From: Thermoproteaceae archaeon
GTDB taxonomy: Archaea; Thermoproteota; Thermoprotei; Thermoproteales; Thermoproteaceae
Length of the DNA stretch: 11,085 nucleotides
Direction: 5' to 3'
Assembly: GCA_020833025.1 (NCBI GenBank)
Contig: JAJHRB010000051.1
Span: forward strand, 1-11,085
In this document: piece after piece, positions 3-11,085 of the stretch
Layout of the letters: every line of letters begins with the position of its first letter
Numbering within the stretch: position 1 is the first letter of the stretch
Made by a program: the position numbers and the translations under genes
Notes under the pieces: generated by a model
The model's input: only the letters and a program-made list of their open reading frames with translations
Told to the model about the DNA's origin: nothing
Databases searched by the model: none

Positions 3-971
3 GTGCGCGCGTTATTTGCCATTGTGGCGCTGGCGGCGCTCGCGCTGGCGCAGTACGTCAGCTGGCACCCTCCCCACGCCTTTCTAGTGCAGGCCTACCC
101 GCTCAACGCGACTCACCTCGCCGCCTACGAGGGCGGCAGGGTGGTGTACATCGCTCAGCAGGGCATTGCCTTCAGCGGCTCGGGCGCCGAGGGGCAGGCA
201 GCGCTGCAGTACCTCAGCGCGCAGTGCAAGTACGTCGCCGTTGACGTGCTGAACGCCTCGGCAGTGGAGGGCGGCGAGCTGTGGCTCTCCGACGTCTACT
301 GCTCGGCGGACGGGAGGCAGTGGCTCTGGCTGAGGTGGCTGCCTCTCAGGTTTGCCGCCTACCGCGGCCGCGTCGAGTTCATCAACGCCACGAACGCCAC
401 TGTGAGCACGCCCGTGGGCCAGTTCGCCGGCTGCGTGCCCGCCGGCTGGTACCTCGACCCGGCCACGAAGGCCGTCTTCGCGCTGCCGCAATTCAACGCG
501 TCACTCCTCGCGGAGGTCCACAGGCTGAGCGCCGCCATTAGGGAGCTGAGGGCCCGGCTGCAGAGGAGCGAGTCTGAGGCCGGCCAGGCTGCCTCGCTCA
601 TCGCCCAGCTGAGGGCGCAGGTAAGCGCTCTCGAGGCCCAGCGGCTCTCGCTGGAGGAGGCCCTGAGGCAGAGAGAGTCCATGATGGCGGCCATGAGCGC
701 GAGCCTGCGCGCGCTAAGCGCGGAGAACGAGGCGCTGAGAGGGCAGGTTGAGAGGCTGAGGAGGGAGGCGGAGGAGCTCAGAGCCGCGCTGGCCGGGCTG
801 AACGCGACGTGCGCTTCCAGGGTCTCGCAGCTGGAGGCAGAGCTCCAGCTCGCCAAGGCGCAGGCCGCCGGGGAGCGGGGAGGCCCCGACGCGCTGCTGC
901 CGCTGCTGGCGGCGCTGGCCAGCATTGCCGTTGCGGCCGCCCTCTACAAGAGGAGAAGGGCGAGAGAGTAA
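3..971 (+). CDS. Cell-surface stalk protein (322 aa): signal peptide, globular head (possibly degenerate SNase-like), ~120-aa coiled coil, C-terminal transmembrane anchor with basic tail
   Basis: N-terminus MRALFAIVALAALALAQ is signal-peptide-like. A heptad-rich Leu/Ala/Glu/Arg segment spans about aa 165-287. The C-terminus is LLPLLAALASIAVAAALY-KRRRARE. Six N-x-S/T sequons and 4 Cys. The GTG start is at the window edge, so upstream context is not visible. Confidence 0.85.
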   Translation: MRALFAIVALAALALAQYVSWHPPHAFLVQAYPLNATHLAAYEGGRVVYIAQQGIAFSGSGAEGQAALQYLSAQCKYVAVDVLNASAVEGGELWLSDVYCSADGRQWLWLRWLPLRFAAYRGRVEFINATNATVSTPVGQFAGCVPAGWYLDPATKAVFALPQFNASLLAEVHRLSAAIRELRARLQRSESEAGQAASLIAQLRAQVSALEAQRLSLEEALRQRESMMAAMSASLRALSAENEALRGQVERLRREAEELRAALAGLNATCASRVSQLEAELQLAKAQAAGERGGPDALLPLLAALASIAVAAALYKRRRARE

Positions 972-972
972 C

Positions 973-985
973 TCACGGTTTTTCC
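973..985 (+). promoter_or_regulatory. Conserved upstream element copy 1 (TCACGGTTTTTCC), candidate non-canonical promoter
   Basis: T-run 979-983 ends 24 nt before ATG 1007. The spacer is C-rich with no Shine-Dalgarno. The same motif and spacing occur in the three other intergenic gaps. Confidence 0.6.
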
Positions 986-1006
986 CCTCCCCTCCCTCCT
1001 CTCTGC

Positions 1007-1453
1007 ATGGAGGACGTGGTGGCGGCCGTCGTTTTCATCGCGGCGCTCTCGGCGCTGCTTGCACTGGCCGCACTGACGCTCGAGCAGTACATGCCGGCGG
1101 GGGTCGTGGAGGCTCCAGTCGCGCCGGCCCACGACGCGCCCGCGAGGCGCATCTATGTCTACAACGACTCGGGAAGGCTTTACGCGGTGGAGTATGCCGG
1201 GAGCGACGCGGAGGCCTTCAGGAGGGCGGCCGGCGTGCCCGGATCCCTCGTTGCGGCCTTTGAGGTGTACCCAGGCGGGTACCGCTGCGCGAGGCGCGCG
1301 GGGGCTCCCGTCAGGATAGGCGACGACCCCTACACCGGCCTGTGGTGCCCGCCGCCGGTCGACGCAAATGCCGGCGCAGGCTGCGCGCCAATCGGGATTA
1401 CGTCGAGGGGCAGGTGGCTGCTGGTGCAGTACCGCTGCCCGGGCCTGCCGTGA
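1007..1453 (+). CDS. Small N-terminally anchored, pilin-like exported protein (148 aa)
   Basis: ATG 1007 is preferred over the ORF-track start at 809, which would overlap the previous gene by 163 nt. N-terminus MEDVVAAVVFIAALSALLALAAL is hydrophobic. Four Cys, one NDS sequon. The stop overlaps the next start (GTGA). Confidence 0.8.
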   Translation: MEDVVAAVVFIAALSALLALAALTLEQYMPAGVVEAPVAPAHDAPARRIYVYNDSGRLYAVEYAGSDAEAFRRAAGVPGSLVAAFEVYPGGYRCARRAGAPVRIGDDPYTGLWCPPPVDANAGAGCAPIGITSRGRWLLVQYRCPGLP

Positions 1454-2451
1454 TCTCCGTACGGGACTTGCTCATACTCGCGGGCCTCACGGCCCTCGCG
1501 GCTGCCGTGATAGCCTCGCTGCTTCCCGCCTACGAGGGCGTGTCAACCGTGCCGGCGTGCTCGGACTGCACCTTCAAGCTGACGGGCGAGTACAGAATCG
1601 TCCAGCACGGCAATTACGCATCTCTATACCTGGGCACGAGAGAGGTGGCGAGGTACGGCTGGGCTTATGCCGGGGGGAGGCCGATGAGAGAGGGCGAGGC
1701 AGTCGCGTGCAGCCCGATGTACGTCAGGGTGGTCGGCGGCCTTGCGTATGTGTCGTGCTCGGGCGCTCCCGCACCGCCGAACGGGACGGCGCCGCGGCTG
1801 CCCCTCAGGGCGTGCAGCCCGTACGCCTACGGCTGGGACGGCGCCTCTAACGCCACGCCCGCCAATTTGCCGCATCGCACGGTAACTCACGGCCCCGAGG
1901 CGTGGGTGTGGGTGGATGCCTCGGCCGGCAACCCGCGCCCCTCCTTAGTACTGCAGGTGGACGGCGCTGCAGGCGACGGCTTCGGCGTGGCCGCGCTGGC
2001 GGTGGGCGTGACCGGGCTAGGCATCAGCACAGGCGCGCGGATCTCAGTGGAGCACGCGTACGGCCGGGATTCGGGCGATGCCGAGAACAACGTAGCTTAC
2101 GTGCAGCTCAAGGTGAGAGCGCCGAACGGCTCCATCGCGTACCTGTATCTTGTCAGAGACGCGGGCGCCGGCATCACGCGCGTGTACAGCGTTGTCGACG
2201 GCGCCGCGCAGTATGTCTGCGACTACGTCATCGGCAGGGGCGCCGACAGCTGCCGGCCCGGCCATGTTGCCGTCAGGCTCGGTGCCCTCTCGGCGGCGTG
2301 GGCCGAGTTCTTCTCGGGCTCCGTGGAGCGGTACATAGGCAGGGGGAGTGTGGAGGCAATCGCGCTCGTGGCTGTCGATCGCGGCGGCTGTCCCGGCAGG
2401 GGCGACTGCGATTTCTGGATTCGCTGGGATAACTTGAGGGTAGACTGCTGA
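1450..2451 (+). CDS. N-terminally anchored exported protein (333 aa): pilin-like N-domain plus C-terminal beta-rich (lectin/CBM-like) domain; candidate adhesin or minor pilin
   Basis: GTG 1450 overlaps the TGA of the previous gene and gives MISVRDLLILAGLTALAAAVIASLL. Ten Cys and 3 sequons. A Pro-rich linker (GAPAPPNGTAPRLP) precedes alternating beta-strand patterns ending FWIRWDNLRVDC. The lectin-like fold is an inference. Confidence 0.8.
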   Translation: MISVRDLLILAGLTALAAAVIASLLPAYEGVSTVPACSDCTFKLTGEYRIVQHGNYASLYLGTREVARYGWAYAGGRPMREGEAVACSPMYVRVVGGLAYVSCSGAPAPPNGTAPRLPLRACSPYAYGWDGASNATPANLPHRTVTHGPEAWVWVDASAGNPRPSLVLQVDGAAGDGFGVAALAVGVTGLGISTGARISVEHAYGRDSGDAENNVAYVQLKVRAPNGSIAYLYLVRDAGAGITRVYSVVDGAAQYVCDYVIGRGADSCRPGHVAVRLGALSAAWAEFFSGSVERYIGRGSVEAIALVAVDRGGCPGRGDCDFWIRWDNLRVDC

Positions 2452-2453
2452 TC

Positions 2454-3095
2454 ATGTGGTCCGCGGCGTACGGCCTGATTGCAGTGGCCGTAGTTGCCTT
2501 CGTGGTTCTCTACGCAGCGGCCCACGCGCCGAGTCTCGCGCCGGCTAACGCCGCGGATGGGGTGTACCGCGCCAAGCTGCAGATAAAGCAGAGCCTGCCA
2601 GGCCTGCCGCGCGTCGAGAGGCCGGAGGACCTCGCGGATAACACGATATACGTCGCGAGGACCTTGCTTAGCGCCGGCAATGCCAGCTTTCCTGTCCACG
2701 TCCCTCTTGCATATGTGCTGGGCGGCGGCTACAGGATTGCCGCGTCCGTGCTAGAGTGCAAGGACTGGATTCTGCCGAGCGGGGAGCCCGCCGCTCTGTA
2801 CAGAATCGCGCTCTACCACCACGTGATCATGCCGTGGCTTGAAGTGCACGCCGCGATTCCGGCGAACGAGACGGACTTCTACATCAAGCTGTACGAGGCA
2901 TACCGCAAAAGCGGCAGGCCTCCCCTGCTCGGGTTCGACCGGGCCGGCTCCGGGCTCGTGCGCGTGAGGGCCGAGCACGCCCTGATCTACAACGCATCCT
3001 CGGGTCTCTACACGCTTTATGTAATCGCGCCGAGAAGGGCCGTGTACATCGTCATCGTCGACTACCCGCTGGAGCTGCCCCTGTCTTGCCCGTAA
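2454..3095 (+). CDS. N-terminally anchored exported protein (213 aa), unknown function
   Basis: ATG lies 2 nt after the previous stop. Hydrophobic helix LIAVAVVAFVVLYAAA, 2 Cys (one penultimate) and 3 sequons (NAS, NET, NAS). Confidence 0.85.
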   Translation: MWSAAYGLIAVAVVAFVVLYAAAHAPSLAPANAADGVYRAKLQIKQSLPGLPRVERPEDLADNTIYVARTLLSAGNASFPVHVPLAYVLGGGYRIAASVLECKDWILPSGEPAALYRIALYHHVIMPWLEVHAAIPANETDFYIKLYEAYRKSGRPPLLGFDRAGSGLVRVRAEHALIYNASSGLYTLYVIAPRRAVYIVIVDYPLELPLSCP

Positions 3096-3098
3096 GCC

Positions 3099-3111
3099 TC
3101 AGGAGTTTTCC
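3099..3111 (+). promoter_or_regulatory. Conserved upstream element copy 2 (TCAGGAGTTTTCC)
   Basis: T-run 3106-3109 ends 23 nt before GTG 3132. Confidence 0.6.
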
Positions 3112-3116
3112 TCCCC

Positions 3117-3132
3117 CGGCGGCCGGCCGCCG
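3117..3132. repeat. Perfect 16-bp all-GC palindrome CGGCGGCCGGCCGCCG abutting the start codon of the 1011-aa gene
   Basis: Read directly; it equals its own reverse complement, and the last G is the first base of GTG 3132. Function unknown. Confidence 0.7.
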
Positions 3133-6100
3133 TGCGCCTCGCGCTGCTCGCCCTCGTGACGCTTGCCGCCGGACTCTATGCAGCGAGCAACTGCAGTTAC
3201 CTCGGCTCCCTTGAGGTGGAAAGAACTGCCGTCGCGCGCGTTACGTTCTCATTCCACGCGCTCGCGCCGCTGGGCACCGGACGCGAGGTCGTAGTGGTGG
3301 CTGAGAATAGCGTTAGGAGTGCCGTCGTGTGGGGCATGGAGTTTCGCAATGCGAGCAGACTAGCCCTAGCCGCCGTGGCGGCTGACGCCAAGTGGGAGGG
3401 AGATCTCAACTACTCGATAACGCTGAATTACTACAGGCCGCGCGAGAGGTGGAGAGTCGGCAGGTACGCGTGCTACGTGAACGGGTCCTTCGCCGGCTAC
3501 TTTTACGTCGTCGAGGCAGAGCCGCCGAGGGAGACCAGAGCAGTCGCCTTCACTGTCGCGAGAGACCGCGCGTCGCATTATGCCAGCGTGACCTTCGAGG
3601 CATCGCTGCCGCCGGATCTCGCGCCCCTGTGCTACAGCCTCTCTGCCAGCGATAGCGGCATCTCGTGCGTGAAGTACGATGGCGCGAATTACATCGAGGG
3701 GGCCTCCTCGCCAGGCGTGTGGAGGGCCGTCGAGGTGAACGGGAGGAGGCCTGGCGGTGCCGTCTCGACAGGCACCGTCACTGCAGCAATTCCCGACCCA
3801 TGGCTCTACACGGACTGCTGCAGCGATCTCGGCGCTGGGACCGCGCTGCTGTCGACGGATCTCTCCAGCGCCGAGCACATGGGCAGCGCCCGCCGCAAGC
3901 CGTTCCTTACGAGAGTCGAGGTCTCGGTGGTCGCGCTGCCAGCGCGGTGGGGCGCCGTGGAGCTCAGGCCTCCGAGGCCTGTGCCTCTGTACGCGTCGCG
4001 CGTGCTCCAGAGGCCCGGCCTCCCGTACTGGAGCCCCCCGGAGTCCTTCAGGGTGAGCGAGGCGGGCAACGCCACGTGGATAGGCAGGGGGTGGAGGTGG
4101 GAGTGGACTCTGGCGTCGGTAGCCGTGAGGACCGGAATCGTGCTCGTGCCGTACGTCGCAGTTGACGCAGGCGGCGTCAGGGCAGTATCGCGGAATGTGA
4201 CGCTGCTGGTGCCGCTGGGCTCCGCCAGCGTCTACAGGGTGGCAGTCGTCTGGCACGCCCCGGCGCTTGGCGTGTGGGTCGGCTCGTACCCCGCGACATA
4301 TCTACGCGCCGTTGATGACCGCGGCAGCGTGCTCGCGCCGCATTACGAGGAGGCGGGGTCTCGGAGGAAGCTGGCGTACGCGGCCGCGAAGCGCGACGGC
4401 GGCATCAAATGGGCCGAGTTCGCAGCGGCAGTTGACGGAACCTTTGCGAGCGCCGTCACGGCCTGGTACGCGCCGCCGGACCCGTGCGCGCAGTGGCCGA
4501 GGCAGCTTTACGTCTGCAGACGCGCGCAGCACGTCTTCACGAAGGTAAACGGCACCTGGACGGGGTACTCAAAAGTCGGCAGGCCGGGAGCCCAGTGGCC
4601 CTGGAGAGTGCTCGCGCTAGTTGACTGGCTGGTTCCCGGCACGCCGGTGAGATGCGGCGCGGACAGCTTCAAGGACTTCGTGCATCTCGTCGCGGGGGAT
4701 CCGGTCCTTCACTACAACTACACCTACGCGCTGAGGAGCTGGCGCTTCAACCCCTCTACCGGCGACTGGGACATTCCAGACGTCTGCGTCCACCCGGCGC
4801 CGCAGGAGGTCTCGTTGCTCTACGCCGTCTACGGGACCCCGGACTACAGAAACACCACCTACGCGCGCGAGCTCTACTTCCAGTCAGCCGAGAGAGGGCC
4901 CTGGTTCTACAACTACGGCTTTCTTGACGCGAATGACAATACGCTCTGGCCGGCCGGCTGGACCGACGCGCTGCCCCTCGGCGTGGCCTCCATGGCCTCC
5001 GACTCTGCGGGCCCGTGGGCCGTGGCGCTGGTGCCCACCACGGCGTGCGAGTCGCTCATCTGCACGAGGCTCAGCGCAACGCTCTGGGGCCCCTCCCCTC
5101 CCGCCGCTCCCGACATTGCGCTTCCTGGCGCTGGCTACTCTCTCCTTATCGTTTACCTCGGCGACACGGCGAGAGAGATCACGCTGAGAGTGCGCGTGGA
5201 GATGGGGTACGTCGTCGAGAGCGTGTACGGCAGGGTCGAGCACAGACGGGTCGGGGACCGCGCACTCGTGGAGATATCGCGCGAGTGGCGCACGCTCGAC
5301 GCCGTGTACGCCGGGCCTGGGTGGCACGTCGACTACCGCCCGCTCCCCCCGTGCGGGCGCCTCGAGCTCGGCGAGAGGGCGGTGTACGTGACGCCTGACG
5401 ACTGGGAGGGGCCCGTCATGGTGACGCTGGAGGAGGTCGAGAGGAGCGCGTCTGGCGAGAGGGAGTTCGTCGTGGCGCGCTACCGCTTCGTCTTCTTTGT
5501 CTCTAGCGACGTGTCATACAGAATCGTGACGGACACCCCGGCGCCCGAGCGCCTCTCGACACCCTCCCTCAACATCACGGCACTGCTGTACGTGGGCGGC
5601 GTGCCGTACTTCCACGGGATCAATGCGTTCGGCGAGGGCGGGAGGCAGGTGCAGTTTGCATGCGTGCCAGCCGTAATGCTGGCCGCCCCGCTCCCGGCGC
5701 TGTCGGCCGCCCCCATCGCGGATCAAACATCGCAGCTCGCAGCGGCGGGGGACTTCTGGGGCGTTATCGAGCTGCTCGGCAGGCTCAGAGTTGAGAGCGC
5801 CTTCGTCAGGCCGCGCTTCGAGCTCCTGGACGCGCAGCGGGGTCTCGTCAGGGTCACGGCAGAAGGCCCAGTGCGCGGCTTTGCATTCTACCTACTGAGA
5901 GACGGGATGTGGGTCAAGGTCGCGGAGGCAGCCGGCAAGTGCGCGCTGGTGAACGCCTCGCGCGTACTTCCGTGGGACCCCCTTCTCGTGCTCCCGCTCG
6001 TTAGGCAGGAGGCGGCTGCCAGGCCCGGAGAGGCTGTCGTGCTGTGGCGCCCGGCGCCCACCTTGCTCTTCAAGGCGTGGGCCGACGCGGCCGGGTACCC

Positions 6101-6167
6101 GGGAGGCGCCGGCAGCGTCCTGAGGGACACCCGGGACGTCCAGGTACCTCGTGAGTGCTCGCGCTAG
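3132..6167 (+). CDS. Large secreted, probably N-glycosylated and disulfide-bonded beta-rich surface protein (1011 aa)
   Basis: Signal peptide MRLALLALVTLAAGLYAA. About 11 N-x-S/T sequons and 16 Cys. Trp/Tyr/Val-rich strand patterns, no clear C-terminal TM anchor, and no recognisable catalytic motif. Confidence 0.9.
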   Translation: MRLALLALVTLAAGLYAASNCSYLGSLEVERTAVARVTFSFHALAPLGTGREVVVVAENSVRSAVVWGMEFRNASRLALAAVAADAKWEGDLNYSITLNYYRPRERWRVGRYACYVNGSFAGYFYVVEAEPPRETRAVAFTVARDRASHYASVTFEASLPPDLAPLCYSLSASDSGISCVKYDGANYIEGASSPGVWRAVEVNGRRPGGAVSTGTVTAAIPDPWLYTDCCSDLGAGTALLSTDLSSAEHMGSARRKPFLTRVEVSVVALPARWGAVELRPPRPVPLYASRVLQRPGLPYWSPPESFRVSEAGNATWIGRGWRWEWTLASVAVRTGIVLVPYVAVDAGGVRAVSRNVTLLVPLGSASVYRVAVVWHAPALGVWVGSYPATYLRAVDDRGSVLAPHYEEAGSRRKLAYAAAKRDGGIKWAEFAAAVDGTFASAVTAWYAPPDPCAQWPRQLYVCRRAQHVFTKVNGTWTGYSKVGRPGAQWPWRVLALVDWLVPGTPVRCGADSFKDFVHLVAGDPVLHYNYTYALRSWRFNPSTGDWDIPDVCVHPAPQEVSLLYAVYGTPDYRNTTYARELYFQSAERGPWFYNYGFLDANDNTLWPAGWTDALPLGVASMASDSAGPWAVALVPTTACESLICTRLSATLWGPSPPAAPDIALPGAGYSLLIVYLGDTAREITLRVRVEMGYVVESVYGRVEHRRVGDRALVEISREWRTLDAVYAGPGWHVDYRPLPPCGRLELGERAVYVTPDDWEGPVMVTLEEVERSASGEREFVVARYRFVFFVSSDVSYRIVTDTPAPERLSTPSLNITALLYVGGVPYFHGINAFGEGGRQVQFACVPAVMLAAPLPALSAAPIADQTSQLAAAGDFWGVIELLGRLRVESAFVRPRFELLDAQRGLVRVTAEGPVRGFAFYLLRDGMWVKVAEAAGKCALVNASRVLPWDPLLVLPLVRQEAAARPGEAVVLWRPAPTLLFKAWADAAGYPGGAGSVLRDTRDVQVPRECSR

Positions 6168-6170
6168 GCC

Positions 6171-6659
6171 GTGTTAACGCTCCGGCACCTCCTAATCCTG
6201 GCAGCTGCTGTTGCCGCGACGGCAGCTGCCGCGGCGGCGATCCTGACAGCGCTACAAGGCGCGAGCCCTGCCGTGAGAGTCGTCGCGGCGTCTATCTTGG
6301 CAGAAAAGCCCGCCAGGGCGGACGCCCCCCTTGCCGTGAGGCAGTATCTTGCATACTACCGGCACGAGGGCAGGTGGGTCCTTGCGGAAGGGCCTGCCGG
6401 GGTGCCCGTGTACGCGCTGGGGCTTGGTGTCTGTCCCGGCGACATACGCCCGCTGCTGAACAGGGCCTACACGAGACAGAGCGCCATAATTCACCTAGCA
6501 GGGTGCTCTCTCGTCATGCCGCGGGCCGAGGACGGCGTGATTGTGCACTACGTCGCCACGTGCACTCTCGGGAGCGACTTCAGGCCGGAGCCGGCTGAGC
6601 TGGAATTGATCTACCAGGGCCGCCCGGTGAGGGTCAGGGTCGTGCTAGTGAACTGCTAG
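6171..6659 (+). CDS. Small N-terminally anchored, pilin-like exported protein (162 aa)
   Basis: GTG lies 3 nt after the previous stop, and an in-frame TAG just upstream fixes the start. N-terminus MLTLRHLLILAAAVAATAAAAAAIL. Four Cys, including the last residue. Confidence 0.85.
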   Translation: MLTLRHLLILAAAVAATAAAAAAILTALQGASPAVRVVAASILAEKPARADAPLAVRQYLAYYRHEGRWVLAEGPAGVPVYALGLGVCPGDIRPLLNRAYTRQSAIIHLAGCSLVMPRAEDGVIVHYVATCTLGSDFRPEPAELELIYQGRPVRVRVVLVNC

Positions 6660-6677
6660 CCCTGCAACCGCAGGCCA

Positions 6678-6690
6678 CTAGCACTTTTCC
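6678..6690 (+). promoter_or_regulatory. Conserved upstream element copy 3 (CTAGCACTTTTCC)
   Basis: T-run 6685-6688 ends 23 nt before ATG 6711. The 5' half diverges from the other three copies. Confidence 0.55.
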
Positions 6691-6710
6691 CGCCTCCTCC
6701 CACCTCCCTT

Positions 6711-6986
6711 ATGCGTGTTGAGCTGGCGCTAATTCCTGTAATACTCGCCCTCGCGGCCGCCGCCCTGACGTTCATGAAGCCGCTGGACGTGCGCAGTACA
6801 GACCTCTCGGCGCTGTTCCTCTACTGGCCGGAGGCGTATGCCTACGCGGAGAGGGGCGATCCCGCCGCGGTGTACAGAATTACTGGGCTCGTTGTCTGCG
6901 CCAATGCCAACGCCTCGGATGCGATAGACGCGCCGCCCGGCATTGCATTCAAGGCGCTGAATATCTACTGCCGCTTCAGGCCGTGA
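6711..6986 (+). CDS. Small N-terminally anchored, pilin-like protein (91 aa)
   Basis: MRVELALIPVILALAAAALTF: Glu4 followed by a hydrophobic helix. Two Cys, one NAS sequon. GTGA overlap with the next gene. Confidence 0.8.
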   Translation: MRVELALIPVILALAAAALTFMKPLDVRSTDLSALFLYWPEAYAYAERGDPAAVYRITGLVVCANANASDAIDAPPGIAFKALNIYCRFRP

Positions 6987-7282
6987 TAGAGGAGTACTTA
7001 GACGTGGTGGCGGTGACGGTGATGGCGGCAGCCGTCCTCGCGGCCCTCTCCGGGCTGGCACACGCCCCGACGCCCGCGGTGTGCAAGGCCGCCGAGATTG
7101 CACTCCAGAGCCCCGGCTCGGAGCTCGTTGTGTACGGCAAGTTCAGCGTGCATTACAACGGGCGCTACGTGTACCTCTCGTGCGGGCTCGCCGTGCCACG
7201 CGAGAGAGTCCTGGCAGTGGAGAGGACTGAGGGCTTGCTGAGAGTCGGGAGCACGCCCGACGGCAGGCTTTACGTGCGCTGA
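6983..7282 (+). CDS. Small N-terminally anchored, pilin-like protein (99 aa)
   Basis: The GTG overlaps the previous TGA. MIEEYLDVVAVTVMAAAVLAALSGL is followed by a short beta-rich domain with 2 Cys. Confidence 0.8.
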   Translation: MIEEYLDVVAVTVMAAAVLAALSGLAHAPTPAVCKAAEIALQSPGSELVVYGKFSVHYNGRYVYLSCGLAVPRERVLAVERTEGLLRVGSTPDGRLYVR

Positions 7283-7306
7283 AAAACAGAATCCCCCTCG
7301 GGGCCG

Positions 7307-7319
7307 TCAAGGGTTTTCC
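7307..7319 (+). promoter_or_regulatory. Conserved upstream element copy 4 (TCAAGGGTTTTCC)
   Basis: T-run 7314-7317 ends 23 nt before GTG 7340. Confidence 0.6.
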
Positions 7320-7339
7320 CTGCCCAGTCCAGAGACCCC

Positions 7340-7636
7340 GTGGTCCTTAAGATCAGGAGGGGGGCCCTAGCGCAAATGCTGGAGGGAGAGGAAGGCGGGC
7401 GGCTTGACGCGCAGCGGGAGATCTTGAGTGCCGGTGACAGGAGGGAAGGCGGAGGGGCAGTAGAGGCGCCGGAGAGCCCTTGGGAGGACCTGCTCGTCAG
7501 ACTGCTAGCGTCGGCGCCAGAGGACGTCGTGCAGAAGCTTGTCAACTGCCTATCTCGCGACGACTTAATTAGAGTGCTCGAGCGCAAGAGCAAGGATCCA
7601 TATCTAAGACTTGCAATAATATTATTGAAAAAATGA
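7340..7636 (+). CDS. Small cytoplasmic protein (98 aa): flexible Gly/Glu-rich N-half and helical C-terminal domain; possible partner of the ParA/MinD ATPase
   Basis: No TM segment. Amphipathic helices WEDLLVRLLA...DDLIRVLERK...YLRLAIILLKK. ATGA overlap with the next gene. The start is supported by the motif spacing. Confidence 0.75.
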   Translation: MVLKIRRGALAQMLEGEEGGRLDAQREILSAGDRREGGGAVEAPESPWEDLLVRLLASAPEDVVQKLVNCLSRDDLIRVLERKSKDPYLRLAIILLKK

Positions 7637-7661
7637 TAAGTATAGGTTTTGCATATATTAA
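7601..7661. other. AT-rich island (12 G+C in 61 nt, ~20%) containing the perfect palindrome CAATAATATTATTG (7614-7627), spanning the junction into the ParA/MinD gene
   Basis: Counted directly from the sequence. It contrasts with the roughly two-thirds GC background. Confidence 0.8.
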
Positions 7662-8229
7662 GGGGGGTACTGGCAAGACCGTGCTCGCGACGTCCGCCGC
7701 GCTGTACTTAAACGCCGTGGGCGCGCCGGCGGCGCTAATTGACGCGTCGCCGGTGCCCATGGCCGCGCTGCTAATGGGCGCGAGCGCCAGCAGAGGGATG
7801 CACGAGGGCAGGCAGGGCGTTCCCGTGTTTAACCTGAGGGGCACCGGGGGGCTGCACGAGGCGCTTAAAGCGCTGGAGGCCGCCAGAGTGTCTGTAGTCG
7901 CGGTCGACCTCCCGCCCGCTCCCAGGACGCCGAGACTGGATATCGTTATCGCCGTGACGGACCCTCCCGGGCTGCACTTCGCGCAAGAGTTCAAGGCCGA
8001 CGCCTCCCTTACTATTCTAGCGCTGAACAAGTCTGACGGCGCGCCGAGCGTGGCAACGTCTATTGCAAATGCCGTGGTCGCGCTGCCGTACAGCCCCGGC
8101 GTTGAGAGGGCTTACCAGAGGCTCCTCCCGCCGATTCTTGTACACTCTGAGAGGGCGCCCTCGCTAGCTAGGTGGAAGCGCGCCTTCCTCGAGCTAATGC
8201 GCATCGTGGCGGAGGAGCTAAGAAGATGA
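7633..8229 (+). CDS. Short ParA/MinD/Soj-family (SIMIBI) P-loop ATPase (198 aa)
   Basis: Deviant Walker A KGGTGKT at the N-terminus, Walker A' ALIDASP, Walker B VAVDLPP, LNK motif and a downstream LPY. Subfamily (ParA vs MinD vs CpaE/TadZ-like) cannot be resolved by eye. Confidence 0.9.
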   Translation: MISIGFAYIKGGTGKTVLATSAALYLNAVGAPAALIDASPVPMAALLMGASASRGMHEGRQGVPVFNLRGTGGLHEALKALEAARVSVVAVDLPPAPRTPRLDIVIAVTDPPGLHFAQEFKADASLTILALNKSDGAPSVATSIANAVVALPYSPGVERAYQRLLPPILVHSERAPSLARWKRAFLELMRIVAEELRR

Positions 8230-8654
8230 CCCCGCGTCACCCGCACATAGAGGTCCTTCACAGGATGAAGCAAGAAGTGGAGGCCATTGAAAGGGAGATC
8301 GCAGAGAGGGAGAGGCAGGCCGCGGGAGGGGCATTAAGGGATGTGGCCAGGTGGGACGCAAAGTACGCCAGAGAGTGGAATTCAGAGTATATCACAACCG
8401 GGCTGGAGGCCTTCCTCTCGTCCTACCGCGCGAGGCCTGTCTTTGAGGAGCTGTGGCGCCTTGCGCTGCAGTGCGCCGACGCGCGCTTTTGCTACCGCGT
8501 GCTAGCGCATGCAAGATTGTCGCGCTCAAGCGAGGCGCTGGCCGCCATTAAAAGAGCCGTGAGGACCGGCGCGAATCTCGAGCGCGTGCTTAAAGCGCTC
8601 TGGGACGGCAGGATCGAGGATGCAGTGAGGCTGGCTGGCCGTGAGGAGGCCTAA
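8226..8654 (+). CDS. Small cytoplasmic all-helical protein (142 aa) with N-terminal coiled coil
   Basis: ATG 8226 overlaps the ParA stop (ATGA) and is preferred over 8172. Coiled-coil-like EVLHRMKQEVEAIEREIAERERQ, no TM segment. Confidence 0.8.
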   Translation: MTPRHPHIEVLHRMKQEVEAIEREIAERERQAAGGALRDVARWDAKYAREWNSEYITTGLEAFLSSYRARPVFEELWRLALQCADARFCYRVLAHARLSRSSEALAAIKRAVRTGANLERVLKALWDGRIEDAVRLAGREEA

Positions 8655-10647
8655 CATTTACGCGTACGCGACTATTGCCGCGCTGGCCTCTGCGTCACTA
8701 GTGCCGGACCCGCTGCTAGCCGCGCTGGCCGCGCTGTCTGCTGCCGTCTGGGGCGAGTGGCTGCTCTTATGGGCCTACCCGCGCCCTCTCGAGCCTTACC
8801 GGGAGAGAGTAGAAATCGGGGGGTTCAAGGCGGCGTACGACCCGAGGCGAGGGCTGTATCACTTCTTTTGGCGCGCAGAGCCCAACAGGAGCGAGCTTGG
8901 CGCCAGCGCAGTGCCAACGCTGCACGAGCTCTACGCCCAGCTGTCGCTGAGGCCCGGCGAGTACATTGCCGTGATCCAGCACGGCGCCGAGCGATACATC
9001 CGCTTCACGACGAGAAATCCCGACGCGCGGAGGCTCGAGGGCCTCGAGGCAGTGCTCGGCCTCTACTTCATCCTGAGGAGGGATGCCCCGTGGCTCCCGC
9101 CGAGGATTAGGCCGTCCCGGGCGCTTTATCTCATTGCCGCGCTTCCCGCGCTTCTCGCGGCGCGCAATCCCGGCATGCTGCTGGCGGCGCTGGCGCTGCT
9201 GTACCGCGCGCACGCCGTCATTAAGTGGTACAGAGAGGCAGTTCCTGACCTGGCCTTCACGACCGTGAGCACCAAGCGCGAGCTTGGCACGTCCCGGCAG
9301 GTTCTCGAGACTCTCGCAGGCGCCGAGGCGGCTGCCGCGGGCAGAATGGATAGGTGGGCTGTCGTGTTAGCGCCTAGGCCCGAGTCCCAGGTCGAGAGGG
9401 AGTTCGGGCGCGCGTACGAGTCGCCGGCCGAGAGAAAGGGAGTCGTGATAAGGCTGCACAGAACCTCCCAGCTTCTCGAGAGGATGATAAAGTATGACGA
9501 GAGGCCGATATACCTGCAGGCATTCGGGGACAGGGAGCTCGCAACACAGCTGGAGATCAAGAGGAGCAGGCTCGCGAACGTGCTGCTCTGGCTGCCGAGC
9601 GAGACATACATGACGAAGGCGCTGTCGTGCGACCTGGCCAGGTTCCCCGTGCTCTACGGCGGCAAGCTAATTGACGTCGGGCGGAAGCTTCTCGTCGGCC
9701 ACGACAGGTTCGGGAGGCCCGTCGAGATAGACCTGGACGCCATGCCGACAGCTCACGCAGTCGTGCTGGGCCCCAGCGGCATGGGCAAGAGCTGGGCCGT
9801 TGCCACTCTCTTGAGGAGAATTGCAGAGCAGCACAAAGACATTAGCGTGGTGGTAATAGACCCGCACGGCGACTACAGCAAGCTCGCCGAGCTCATAGGC
9901 GCGTCCGTCTACGAGGTCCCGAGGCAGCTCCCGCCTCTAGATACCATTAAGGGGAGCCGGTATGCACACGCGCTGCTGGAGGAGTTTGGACTCGCTGGCG
10001 AGGAGCTCGAAGACGCCGCCGCCCTCGTGGCGAGAGACGCGGGCGTTAACGACATTACATTCGTGACGCCGCCGGCAGACTCCCACGTGGTTTACGAGTT
10101 GCGCGTGCTGAGAGGAGACGCGCACGCCCAAGCGTTCTTCGTATCGCTGTTGTTGCTGTGGCACCTATCCGCCTACGGCCGCAGGCCGCCGGCCGAGAGG
10201 CTGGAGCGCATTATTGTTGTCGACGAGGCCGCGCTGCTGGCGCACACGGCCCGCGTGTCTGAGACGGGACTGGTAATAAACGTGCCGCTGAACTTAATAC
10301 GGCAGTACAGCATGGGCGGCAGGAAGTACGGCTTTGCGGTATGGCTCGTGGCGCAGCTCGCCCGGCACGTGCCCGAGGACATAATCGAGAATGCCGGCTT
10401 CGTGCTCCAGCTCGGCGGGACCAGACGGGCGCTGAGAAGGTCAGCGGAGATACTGCTCCTTGACAGGCACGACCTTGAGTACCTCAGAAGCGCCGCGACG
10501 CCTCGCGAGACTGCGAGTAGCCAGCGCGAGGGAGGCCCGCGCCCCTACGCCGCGGGCATTCTCTACATGTCGCCGAGAGACATAGTCTACCACGTGAGGA
10601 TACCCCTCGACCCAGAGCTGAAGGAGGCTCCGGCGGGAGTGCCATGA
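8641..10647 (+). CDS. Membrane-anchored HerA/VirB4 (FtsK-HerA superfamily, DUF87-like) ATPase (668 aa), CedB/TedB-like architecture
   Basis: VG.D..G.PV.IDL...HAVVLG lead-in, Walker A GPSGMGKS (nt 9769-9792), VVVIDPHGDY, Walker B IIVVDEAA (Asp at nt 10222), GRKYG arginine finger, and LVAQ...IIENAG. Two hydrophobic hairpins in the N-terminal third (about aa 7-45 and 160-195). Confidence 0.9.
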   Translation: MRRPNIYAYATIAALASASLVPDPLLAALAALSAAVWGEWLLLWAYPRPLEPYRERVEIGGFKAAYDPRRGLYHFFWRAEPNRSELGASAVPTLHELYAQLSLRPGEYIAVIQHGAERYIRFTTRNPDARRLEGLEAVLGLYFILRRDAPWLPPRIRPSRALYLIAALPALLAARNPGMLLAALALLYRAHAVIKWYREAVPDLAFTTVSTKRELGTSRQVLETLAGAEAAAAGRMDRWAVVLAPRPESQVEREFGRAYESPAERKGVVIRLHRTSQLLERMIKYDERPIYLQAFGDRELATQLEIKRSRLANVLLWLPSETYMTKALSCDLARFPVLYGGKLIDVGRKLLVGHDRFGRPVEIDLDAMPTAHAVVLGPSGMGKSWAVATLLRRIAEQHKDISVVVIDPHGDYSKLAELIGASVYEVPRQLPPLDTIKGSRYAHALLEEFGLAGEELEDAAALVARDAGVNDITFVTPPADSHVVYELRVLRGDAHAQAFFVSLLLLWHLSAYGRRPPAERLERIIVVDEAALLAHTARVSETGLVINVPLNLIRQYSMGGRKYGFAVWLVAQLARHVPEDIIENAGFVLQLGGTRRALRRSAEILLLDRHDLEYLRSAATPRETASSQREGGPRPYAAGILYMSPRDIVYHVRIPLDPELKEAPAGVP

Positions 10648-11085
10648 GCGCCGACTGGAGGGACTGCATCTACAGGCCCCACCTCTGCGGGCAGGGCGAC
10701 GAGCAGAGAGCAGAGGGCTTGAGAGAGCTGCTAGCAGAGCTTCACGGCCGGCCTGCCAGCTCCATGCGGGCGCGCTGGCAGCGCGAGAGGCCCGAGGCCC
10801 TGATACCTGCCGCGCACGGACTGCCTGTCAGACACGGCGGCTTTCTGCTCGCCAGCTACTGGCACGTCGTGAGGGAGCCTCACGCGGCGGCGGGCGATAT
10901 CGTTGTGGTGAGAGGTCCCGGCGAGTACTACATCCTGCGCCGCGCGAAAAGGGCAGACGCGTGGATCGAGGCGCCGCCCGAGCTCATGGTTGCGGGACGC
11001 GTAGATAGGCGCCTGTGCGTCTACGGCTTCGTGCTGCTGCGAGACATTGAGCGCGTGGCAGAGCTCGTCGGGGCGGGCACTCACG
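10644..11085 (+). CDS. Hypothetical protein, 3'-truncated by the window end (>147 aa); absent from the ORF track
   Basis: ATGA overlap with the ATPase stop. The frame stays open to the end of the window: MSADWRDCIYRPHLCGQGDEQRAEGLRELLAELHGRP...LCVYGFVLLRDIERVAELVGAGTH. Codon usage matches the neighbours. Confidence 0.8.
   Translation, partial: MSADWRDCIYRPHLCGQGDEQRAEGLRELLAELHGRPASSMRARWQRERPEALIPAAHGLPVRHGGFLLASYWHVVREPHAAAGDIVVVRGPGEYYILRRAKRADAWIEAPPELMVAGRVDRRLCVYGFVLLRDIERVAELVGAGTH

Follow-up and report, generated by a model that had tools for sequence, protein, structure and literature searches.

A Thermoproteaceae contig at the probable junction of a 4G type IV pilus locus and a Ted DNA exchange locus

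The window analyzed here is the whole of contig C15 (JAJHRB010000051.1) from a Thermoproteaceae archaeon. It contained 11,085 bp and is one of 126 contigs of a 1.56-Mb metagenome-assembled genome (MAG; G000). The MAG was 94% complete. The GC content was 66% in the window and 62.6% in the genome. The window is filled by 13 open reading frames (ORFs; g01 to g13), all on the + strand (Table 1). The genes on the left (g01 to g08) were compared with a type IV pilus (T4P) locus, and those on the right (g09 to g13) with a locus for the Thermoproteales exchange of DNA (Ted).

A hydropathy script found an N-terminal hydrophobic segment in each of g01 to g08, and g01 has a C-terminal one as well. From g09 to g13 the stop and start codons overlap by 4, 4, 14, and 4 nucleotides (nt), which indicates a translationally coupled operon. 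It contains two P-loop ATPases, g10 with a Walker A motif and g12 with a DUF87/HerA match. Among the window proteins, Pfam matched only a coiled coil in g01, weak ParA/CbiA in g10, and P-loop families in g12. The NCBIfam search gave sub-threshold matches only, and family searches with g09 and with g11 gave no match. The earlier note on this DNA had listed 13 co-oriented genes, eight of them for exported or anchored proteins, a coupled operon with two ATPases, and one shared upstream motif. Each of these observations was reproduced, the last one through the hexamer TTTTCC described below.

Table 1. Genes and upstream elements of the 11,085-bp window (aa, amino acids)
Feature	Position	Strand	Size	Description	Basis
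g01	3-971	+	322 aa	Signal peptide, coiled coil, C-terminal membrane anchor; arCOG05613-type	Hydropathy, Pfam coiled coil, collinear orthologues
TTTTCC element	980-985	+		27 nt before g02 start	
g02	1007-1453	+	148 aa	N-terminal helix and beta domain with conserved cysteines; arCOG05614 "predicted pilin family"	Orthologue length, AlphaFold2 (AF2) model
g03	1450-2451	+	333 aa	N-terminal helix; conservation limited to first ~110 aa	
g04	2454-3095	+	213 aa	Conserved N terminus MWSxAYG, then hydrophobic helix	
TTTTCC element	3106-3111	+		26 nt before g05 start	
g05	3132-6167	+	1011 aa	Secreted; arCOG05616, adhesin-like component of 4G locus	
g06	6171-6659	+	162 aa	N-terminal helix; probably arCOG05617	Gene order only
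TTTTCC element	6685-6690	+		26 nt before g07 start	
g07	6711-6986	+	91 aa	N-terminal helix; arCOG05618 "predicted pilin family"	Orthologue length
g08	6983-7282	+	99 aa	N-terminal helix; arCOG05619; last gene of 4G locus	
TTTTCC element	7314-7319	+		26 nt before g09 start, head of Ted operon	
g09	7340-7636	+	98 aa	Soluble, without hydrophobic segment; paralogues in Ted loci and in 4G loci	
g10	7633-8229	+	198 aa	Short ParA/MinD-type ATPase; ParA/VirC1-like gene of Ted loci	
g11	8226-8654	+	142 aa	Soluble; kept between g10 and g12 in Ted loci	
g12	8641-10647	+	668 aa	Membrane-anchored VirB4-like ATPase, TedB homologue	
g13 (d13)	10644-11085	+	First 147 of 229 codons	Cut by contig end; conserved Ted-locus gene	

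Makarova et al. 2016 (PMC4858521) described a pilus locus of Pyrobaculum and Thermoproteus as T4P subclade 4G. It contains a FleN/MinD ATPase (arCOG05608), a diverged ATPase (arCOG05609), TadC (arCOG05611), and a PilA-family pilin (arCOG05612). It also contains a C-terminally anchored protein, a large secreted adhesin-like protein, several cysteine-rich small "pilins," and two small helical intracellular proteins. A PLoS Genetics survey of 2026 (PMC13705601) treats it as type IV filament (T4F) subsystem 4G and likens arCOG05616 to hook-like adhesins. The 4G system is known from comparative genomics only, and no filament has been assigned to it. On the evidence of orthology and gene order, g01 to g08 are the 3' part, the distal two thirds, of this locus (arCOG05613 to arCOG05619).

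Synteny of the 4G locus was compared in eight genomes, seven in single contigs and one in 20 contigs. The order was u01, u02, MinD, ATPase, (g09-like), u05, TadC, pilin, and then g01 to g08, which were collinear in all eight. The exception was G035, in which the ATPase and MinD genes lie ~22 kb from the remaining 4G locus. The split in G035 (C1:1,305,851-1,329,336) suggests an insertion, and a weak P-loop match to g12 lies immediately before the g09-like gene there. Homologues of g05 were searched for in 62 genomes of the order. They were retrieved from 15 of the 17 other genomes of the genus and from none of the other genera. Twelve of these 15 genomes have a single one, G040 has two loci, and a second, partial match was present in G041 and in G046.

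The supplement of Makarova et al. 2016 has consecutive P. calidifontis entries of 398, 148, 318, 159, 979, 88, and 100 aa for arCOG05611, 05612, 05613, 05614, 05616, 05618, and 05619. The P. calidifontis orthologues that we found were 148, 318, 159, 979, 88, and 100 aa long, identical to the entries for arCOG05612, 05613, 05614, 05616, 05618, and 05619. Because of these equal lengths, g01 was assigned to arCOG05613, g02 to 05614, g05 to 05616, g07 to 05618, and g08 to 05619. The gene order and the parts are those of the published locus (PMC4858521, PMC13705601). The locus differs from it in three places: u08, u09, and a reverse-strand gene with four transmembrane (TM) segments lie between the pilin gene and g01; the usual g09-like gene is missing between the ATPase gene and u05; and the Ted operon follows g08 directly.

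The beginning of the pilus locus was retrieved from another contig of the MAG, C66 (25 kb). Its last 127 nt are the first 127 nt of the window. An independent metagenomic contig of 18.3 kb (L002) is collinear across this C66/C15 junction, with 93% and 88% nucleotide identity. Upstream of the window C66 encodes u01, u02, a ParA/MinD protein of 234 aa, an ATPase of 509 aa, a soluble protein of 111 aa, a membrane protein of 398 aa, and a pilin of 163 aa. The pilus MinD, the FlaI-type ATPase, the TadC-like protein, and the class III pilin lie 5 to 9 kb upstream. The 509-aa ORF (L004:11632-13161), ~8 kb from the window, matched Pfam T2SSE at 1.8e-9. Its orthologues are 71 to 80% identical and occupy the same position in seven of the eight genomes; one is also present in the Ted-linked copy of G040 (L037). 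The 398-aa protein has at least three predicted TM segments in a crude hydropathy scan and is TadC-like. It had no Pfam T2SSF match. Its P. calidifontis orthologue is 62% identical and sits in the position of the 398-aa arCOG05611 entry. The 163-aa ORF encodes a class III signal peptide (...RG|LTTVEALL...), in which the motif [KR]G|[LM]T[TS][VI]E is conserved, and a hydrophobic helix. This major pilin (u07) had no PDB sequence match, which rules out that it is the solved P. arsenaticum T4P pilin. The earlier note had remarked that the only motor in view was VirB4/HerA-like. This is an effect of the contig edges; FlaI/PilB-type ATPase, TadC-like, MinD, and class III pilin genes are encoded just upstream, on C66.

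The genes between the pilin gene and g01 are u08 (380 aa), u09 (114 aa), and the reverse-strand gene. The u08/u09 insertion lies at C66:21,558-24,845 (L004:16503-19790). Both encode secreted proteins that are found elsewhere within Ted loci, and in P. calidifontis they are fused into one 499-aa protein. Three further u08/u09 pairs were retrieved from this MAG, on contigs C37, C82, and C89. At C66:18,213-18,245 (L004:13161-13190) only 28 nt separate the ATPase gene from u05, with no g09-like gene between them. Most other 4G loci examined contain that gene; no match was found in G038, G039, or the second copy of G040. In this MAG, g09 itself, at the head of the Ted operon of the window, is the sole member of the g09 family that was detected.

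Judging by its family, the FlaI/PilB-type ATPase of C66 would assemble the class III pilin into a filament together with the TadC-like platform. The proteins g02 to g04 and g06 to g08 may be minor pilins or membrane-anchored accessory parts. The g05 protein may be a secreted adhesin, and g01 may be a coiled-coil protein anchored by its C terminus. The small proteins have conserved N termini (MED..., MxxxRD..., MWSxAYG..., MLTLR..., and MRxE...). The C-terminal extension of g03 is variable, at 106 to 365 aa in its relatives. The AF2 model of g02 (predicted local distance difference test score [pLDDT], 82.7) has a helix at residues 2 to 26, a low-confidence flexible linker, and a beta domain.

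Several points weigh against reading the left half simply as the published pilus locus. The arCOG families were assigned from orthology and from exact agreement in length, and not from an arCOG profile. The genes g03, g04, and g06 were placed by gene order only. Unlike the major pilin, all of g02 to g08 lack the canonical class III [KR]G/A cleavage motif. The g02 model is not a recognizable pilin fold, as no solved pilin was matched (best Foldseek E value, 0.6; best VIA Z, 3.7). Because the cleavage motif is absent and the g02 model matches no solved pilin, "minor pilin" is unproven for the small proteins.

Ted was described by Beltran et al. 2023 (PMC9905601). It consists of TedA, TedB, and TedC, and the VirB4-like TedB lies "a few genes upstream." According to the model published for it, both the conjugative-type pilus made of TedC and the passage of DNA through TedA are powered by TedB. 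A second, VirD4-like ATPase, TedD, has been added (PMC11823120). As judged by collinearity and fold, g09 to g13 are the 5' part of a Ted locus. They form the head of the locus, with a small soluble protein, a ParA/VirC1-like ATPase, and a membrane-anchored VirB4-like TedB.

The g10 protein has a deviant Walker A motif, KGGTGKT. It matched Pfam CbiA at 2.7e-4 and NCBIfam ParA at 2.5e-6, which is below the cut-off. It is conserved upstream of TedB homologues in many loci, including that of P. calidifontis. The g12 protein matched DUF87/HerA in Pfam at 5.7e-17 and also gave FtsK and TraG P-loop matches. Hydrophobic helices are predicted near its N terminus, at residues 3 to 45 and 161 to 196. Its AF2 model (pLDDT, 84; predicted TM-score [pTM], 0.81) best matched TrwK/VirB4 of the type IV secretion system (T4SS) of R388, over its whole length (E value, 1.9e-12; TMq, 0.51). 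The match to HerA was weaker (TMq, about 0.32). The likeness to bacterial conjugative T4SS (R388 TrwK/VirB4, Ti VirC1) includes the whole-length alignment of g12 and an accompanying ParA-type ATPase. As differences, the identity between g12 and TrwK is only ~10%, and no VirB7-10 core and no integrase were found; a relaxase was not found either, although no relaxase-specific search was made.

The g12 protein is 37% identical to the single homologue in G036, which lies in the Ted locus of that genome. After this gene, G036 encodes homologues of d13 and d14, a u08-like protein, a RadA-like protein, d15, d18, a 153-aa ORF, a polytopic protein of 310 aa, and a membrane protein of very large size. 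Beltran et al. 2023 give AVA|QA as the site of signal-peptide cleavage, and the 153-aa ORF contains it. This ORF matched the PDB entry 8DFT, "Pilin protein," at 7.5e-64 over residues 38 to 149. This site and this match identify G036 as P. calidifontis and its locus as the published Ted locus. The PDB match anchors TedC and TedA there; the g12 homologue is TedB, and the g10 homologue is the ParA/VirC1-like gene. From g10 and g12 through g13 onward, the genes seen here are collinear with that locus, which ends in TedC (PDB 8DFT) and TedA (PMC9905601). They differ from it in the low identity of g12, whose lineage, with metagenomic relatives at 55 to 65% identity, is a distinct subgroup. They also differ in that TedC was retrieved from another contig, that TedA and TedD were not recovered in the MAG, and that the locus abuts a pilus locus.

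The downstream order was read from the near-identical contig L002. It contains g13 at full length (229 aa), d14 (260 aa), d15 (300 aa), small proteins, and d18. A g13 homologue is the next gene after that for TedB in the majority of the Ted loci compared. The d15 protein is a P-loop ATPase with weak AAA_10 and TrwB matches and no match among PDB sequences. It is present in L002 and in other Ted loci and is a candidate for TedD. TedC, TedA, and the large membrane protein follow the module in five loci (L028, L030, L032, L038, and L040), and TedC and TedA follow it in L010. TedC is also downstream in the syntenic G040. With P. calidifontis TedA as the query, matches were found in most genomes with a g12 homologue (G040, G037, and G054 among them) and none in G045 or G000. 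The MAG itself encodes a TedC homologue on contig C93 (positions 3524 to 3799; PDB 8DFT match, 6.5e-8), where it is cut by the contig end. Against the assignment of the right half, the downstream Ted genes of the MAG were not assembled next to the window, and TedA, d14, and d15 were not found in this fragmented, 94%-complete bin.

About 95 metagenomic homologues of g12 were retrieved at 55 to 65% identity, named Pyrobaculum or Thermoproteus where they are named. Relatives at 35 to 44% identity were present in 7 of the 17 genus genomes. They are often multicopy, with three in G037 and five in G043. This distribution suggests that Ted may be an accessory, amplifying, and possibly mobile module rather than a single, uniformly domesticated locus.

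The multicopy, patchy ATPase and its many homologues on short contigs could also point to a HerA-based anti-phage defense system or to part of a provirus or plasmid. The g12 protein does match PADLOC HerA models, and both g12 and d15 match mad8. The HerA matches span only ~60 residues around the P loop, and no partner defense genes were matched. The whole-protein fold match of g12 to VirB4 is better than the one to HerA. A tblastn search of g12 against 50,697 phage and archaeal-virus records returned one record, at 13% coverage, which is irrelevant, and PHROGs gave only coiled-coil and P-loop noise. This type of locus also contains the solved TedC pilin. We regard the defense or provirus origin as very improbable.

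Three side observations concern the Ted loci. The first is d18 (L002:15086-15676 and homologues), a SWIM-like zinc-finger protein with a conserved CxC...CxH pattern. In the majority of the full-length Ted loci examined it is the last gene of the d13 to d15 block, with the RadA-like gene or TedC coming right after it. It has no assigned role in the text of the cited papers. The second concerns genomes with several loci. The Ted-type loci of G037 lie at 268 kb, 2.32 Mb, and 2.46 Mb, the last one running across the record start, and G043 has five. Each of these modules contains its own ATPases, and most contain TedC and TedA. The third concerns C93, whose first 1.6 kb (L069:1-1,650) contain several very hydrophobic small ORFs unlike the remaining genome. 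A divergent island could account for this part, as could a chimera that arose in assembly or binning.

We consider it probable that the window is the junction of two already described systems, which are able to occur separately, in a Pyrobaculum-like archaeon. The earlier note had proposed instead that all 13 genes form a single new, uncharacterized envelope machine, in which a VirB4/HerA-like ATPase assembles the pilin-like subunits. Co-orientation, tight spacing, and an upstream element common to both halves fit that proposal. However, a FlaI-type ATPase and a TadC-like protein are encoded with g01 to g08 in seven of eight genomes (in G035 the ATPase and MinD genes lie ~22 kb away), and Ted loci carry their own VirB2-like pilin and VirB6-like channel. 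The halves are unlinked in eight genomes, where the pilus locus ends at g08 and no Ted-like genes follow it. The single machine is therefore very improbable. The functions that the note had named, namely pilus or adhesion, DNA transfer, and ParA-type positioning, hold up. The single uncharacterized machine does not, since g01 to g08 match the published 4G locus gene for gene and g10 to g13 match the published Ted locus. The seeming mismatch between pilin-like subunits and a VirB4-like motor is a truncation artifact, because a short contig cuts two known systems. The note had staked its reading on halves that keep together in other genomes and on the lack of a canonical pilus motor or a described locus to account for them. 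Largely the opposite was found on both points, because the motor genes lie upstream, the published loci are matched, and the halves are separate in eight genomes.

The linkage of the two loci varies. In P. calidifontis the 4G pilus locus lies ~400 kb from Ted, and most Ted copies have no adjacent pilus genes. Their usual order is MinD paralogue, g09, (u05-like), g10, g11, g12, d13, d14, d15, and d18. Ted loci contain paralogues of u01, u02, MinD, g09, and u05 of the 4G locus. The pilus and Ted loci lie side by side in at least two lineages, as seen in G000 and L002, in G040, and in G046, where g08, a g10-like gene, and g12 lie on one contig. G040 is probably P. oguniense, and G035 is probably P. 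arsenaticum. A 45.5-kb segment of G040 (C1:486,889-532,343; L073, L037, L038, and L074) holds the whole of a Ted locus and a further, divergent copy of 4G. The closely related G035 lacks this segment; the sequences that flank it match at 98% identity, with only 18 bp between them in G035. At its edges the segment contains a truncated TFB-like gene (166 aa), a GmrSD-like gene, and a gene for a 2,760-aa PaREP2b protein. No direct repeats (att) were found at its ends. Phage_integrase (PF00589), the tyrosine integrase family, gave no match near any copy in five genomes, and no tRNA genes were found in the loci scanned. These three results speak against an integrated element with an integrase. The MinD genes of G040 (237 and 234 aa) match P. 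oguniense TE7 entries in the supplement of Makarova et al. 2016.

The shared upstream motif is the hexamer TTTTCC. It occurs exactly four times in the 11 kb of the window, where 1.03 were expected, always on the + strand. Each of the four intergenic spacers of at least 35 nt contains one copy, always 26 to 27 nt before a start (g02, g05, g07, and g09). In related genomes a fuller form, AARGTTTTTCC(C), lies 26 to 30 nt upstream of the pilin gene, g01, g02, g05, and g07. The element is present upstream of g02 orthologues in L002 and G037, is conserved upstream of g05 in G034 and G039, and precedes g07 in 9 of 10 related loci. Variants of it lie upstream of g09 in L002 and L003. In P. calidifontis it lies upstream of TedC and of the RadA-like gene, and in this MAG it lies upstream of the pilin gene and of TedC. 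P. calidifontis has 29 exact copies of GTTTTTCCC. Very few of them, the one at TedC included, are in promoter position.

TTTTCC is ruled out as the general promoter word of the genome. It was found at 0.74-fold upstream of candidate starts genome-wide, whereas TTTTTA, TTTTAA, and TTTAAA were enriched ~3-fold (TTTTTA, 3.5-fold). According to PMC2151090, Pyrobaculum mRNAs are largely leaderless, so the position of the element is that of a TATA box. Most likely, five transcription units of the joint C66 and window locus have their promoters at this element, a function that we infer from its position. One unit would start at the major pilin gene on C66, and the others would comprise g02 to g04, g05 and g06, g07 and g08, and g09 onward.

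That the two loci adjoin each other in several lineages and have a promoter element in common is a further point against treating them as separate; pilus and Ted may depend on each other in function. The pilus and Ted could form one functional unit for cell-to-cell DNA exchange that travels as a genomic island, a tentative reading to which we give well below an even chance. It extends the junction of two described systems rather than excluding it. The pilus would make the cell contact, in the role that Ups pili have beside Ced in Sulfolobales, and DNA transfer would fall to Ted. Its support includes the adjacency in G000/L002, G040, and G046, the G040 segment whose flanks lie 18 bp apart in G035, and the paralogues of u01, u02, MinD, g09, and u05 within Ted loci. 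It also includes the element, which lacks A at the TATA position, is not a general promoter word, and is common to 4G genes, g09, TedC, and the RadA-like gene, even at the 400-kb distance of P. calidifontis. However, 4G belongs to the core of the genus (15 of 17), whereas Ted has a patchy distribution (7 of 17). The pilus can therefore do without Ted, and most Ted copies lack neighboring pilus genes. The island is bounded by neither att repeats nor a tyrosine integrase, and G035 may have undergone a deletion instead of G040 an insertion.

In its most specific form the proposal is that the 4G pilus is the cell-contact arm of Ted exchange and the counterpart of Ups. Both would belong to one regulon through the AARGTTTTTCC-like element, 26 to 30 nt before leaderless starts, and the pair would be co-mobile as an island of ~45 kb. 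We hold this to be possible and rather doubtful. The likeness to Ups and Ced lies in a contact type IV pilus paired with a VirB4/VirB6/VirB2-like DNA importer and co-regulated with it (by TFB3 in Sulfolobus), and it is an analogy. Ups and Ced are not adjacent in Sulfolobus, and here co-regulation is suggested only by the shared promoter element. An adjacent, repeatedly co-occurring 4G pilus bears on how Thermoproteales bring cells together for Ted exchange. If the proposal is true, 4G is the counterpart of the Ups pili that Thermoproteales were thought to lack. The link yields a testable hypothesis on archaeal DNA exchange and its regulation. Three aspects of the pilus-plus-Ted pair appear worth following: that the loci recur side by side, that they seem to be linked in regulation, and that the pair may be mobile. 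We rate such a link as possible.

A further sequence was observed in three copies in P. calidifontis (G036:C1:259,950-278,500; L079, L080, and L081). Its consensus is TAAGTTTTTCCCT(C/T)GT(T/G)(T/A)(T/G)TGTGGG(A/G). After two of its three copies no ORF lies at promoter distance. The three copies are near-identical and resemble a dispersed repeat.

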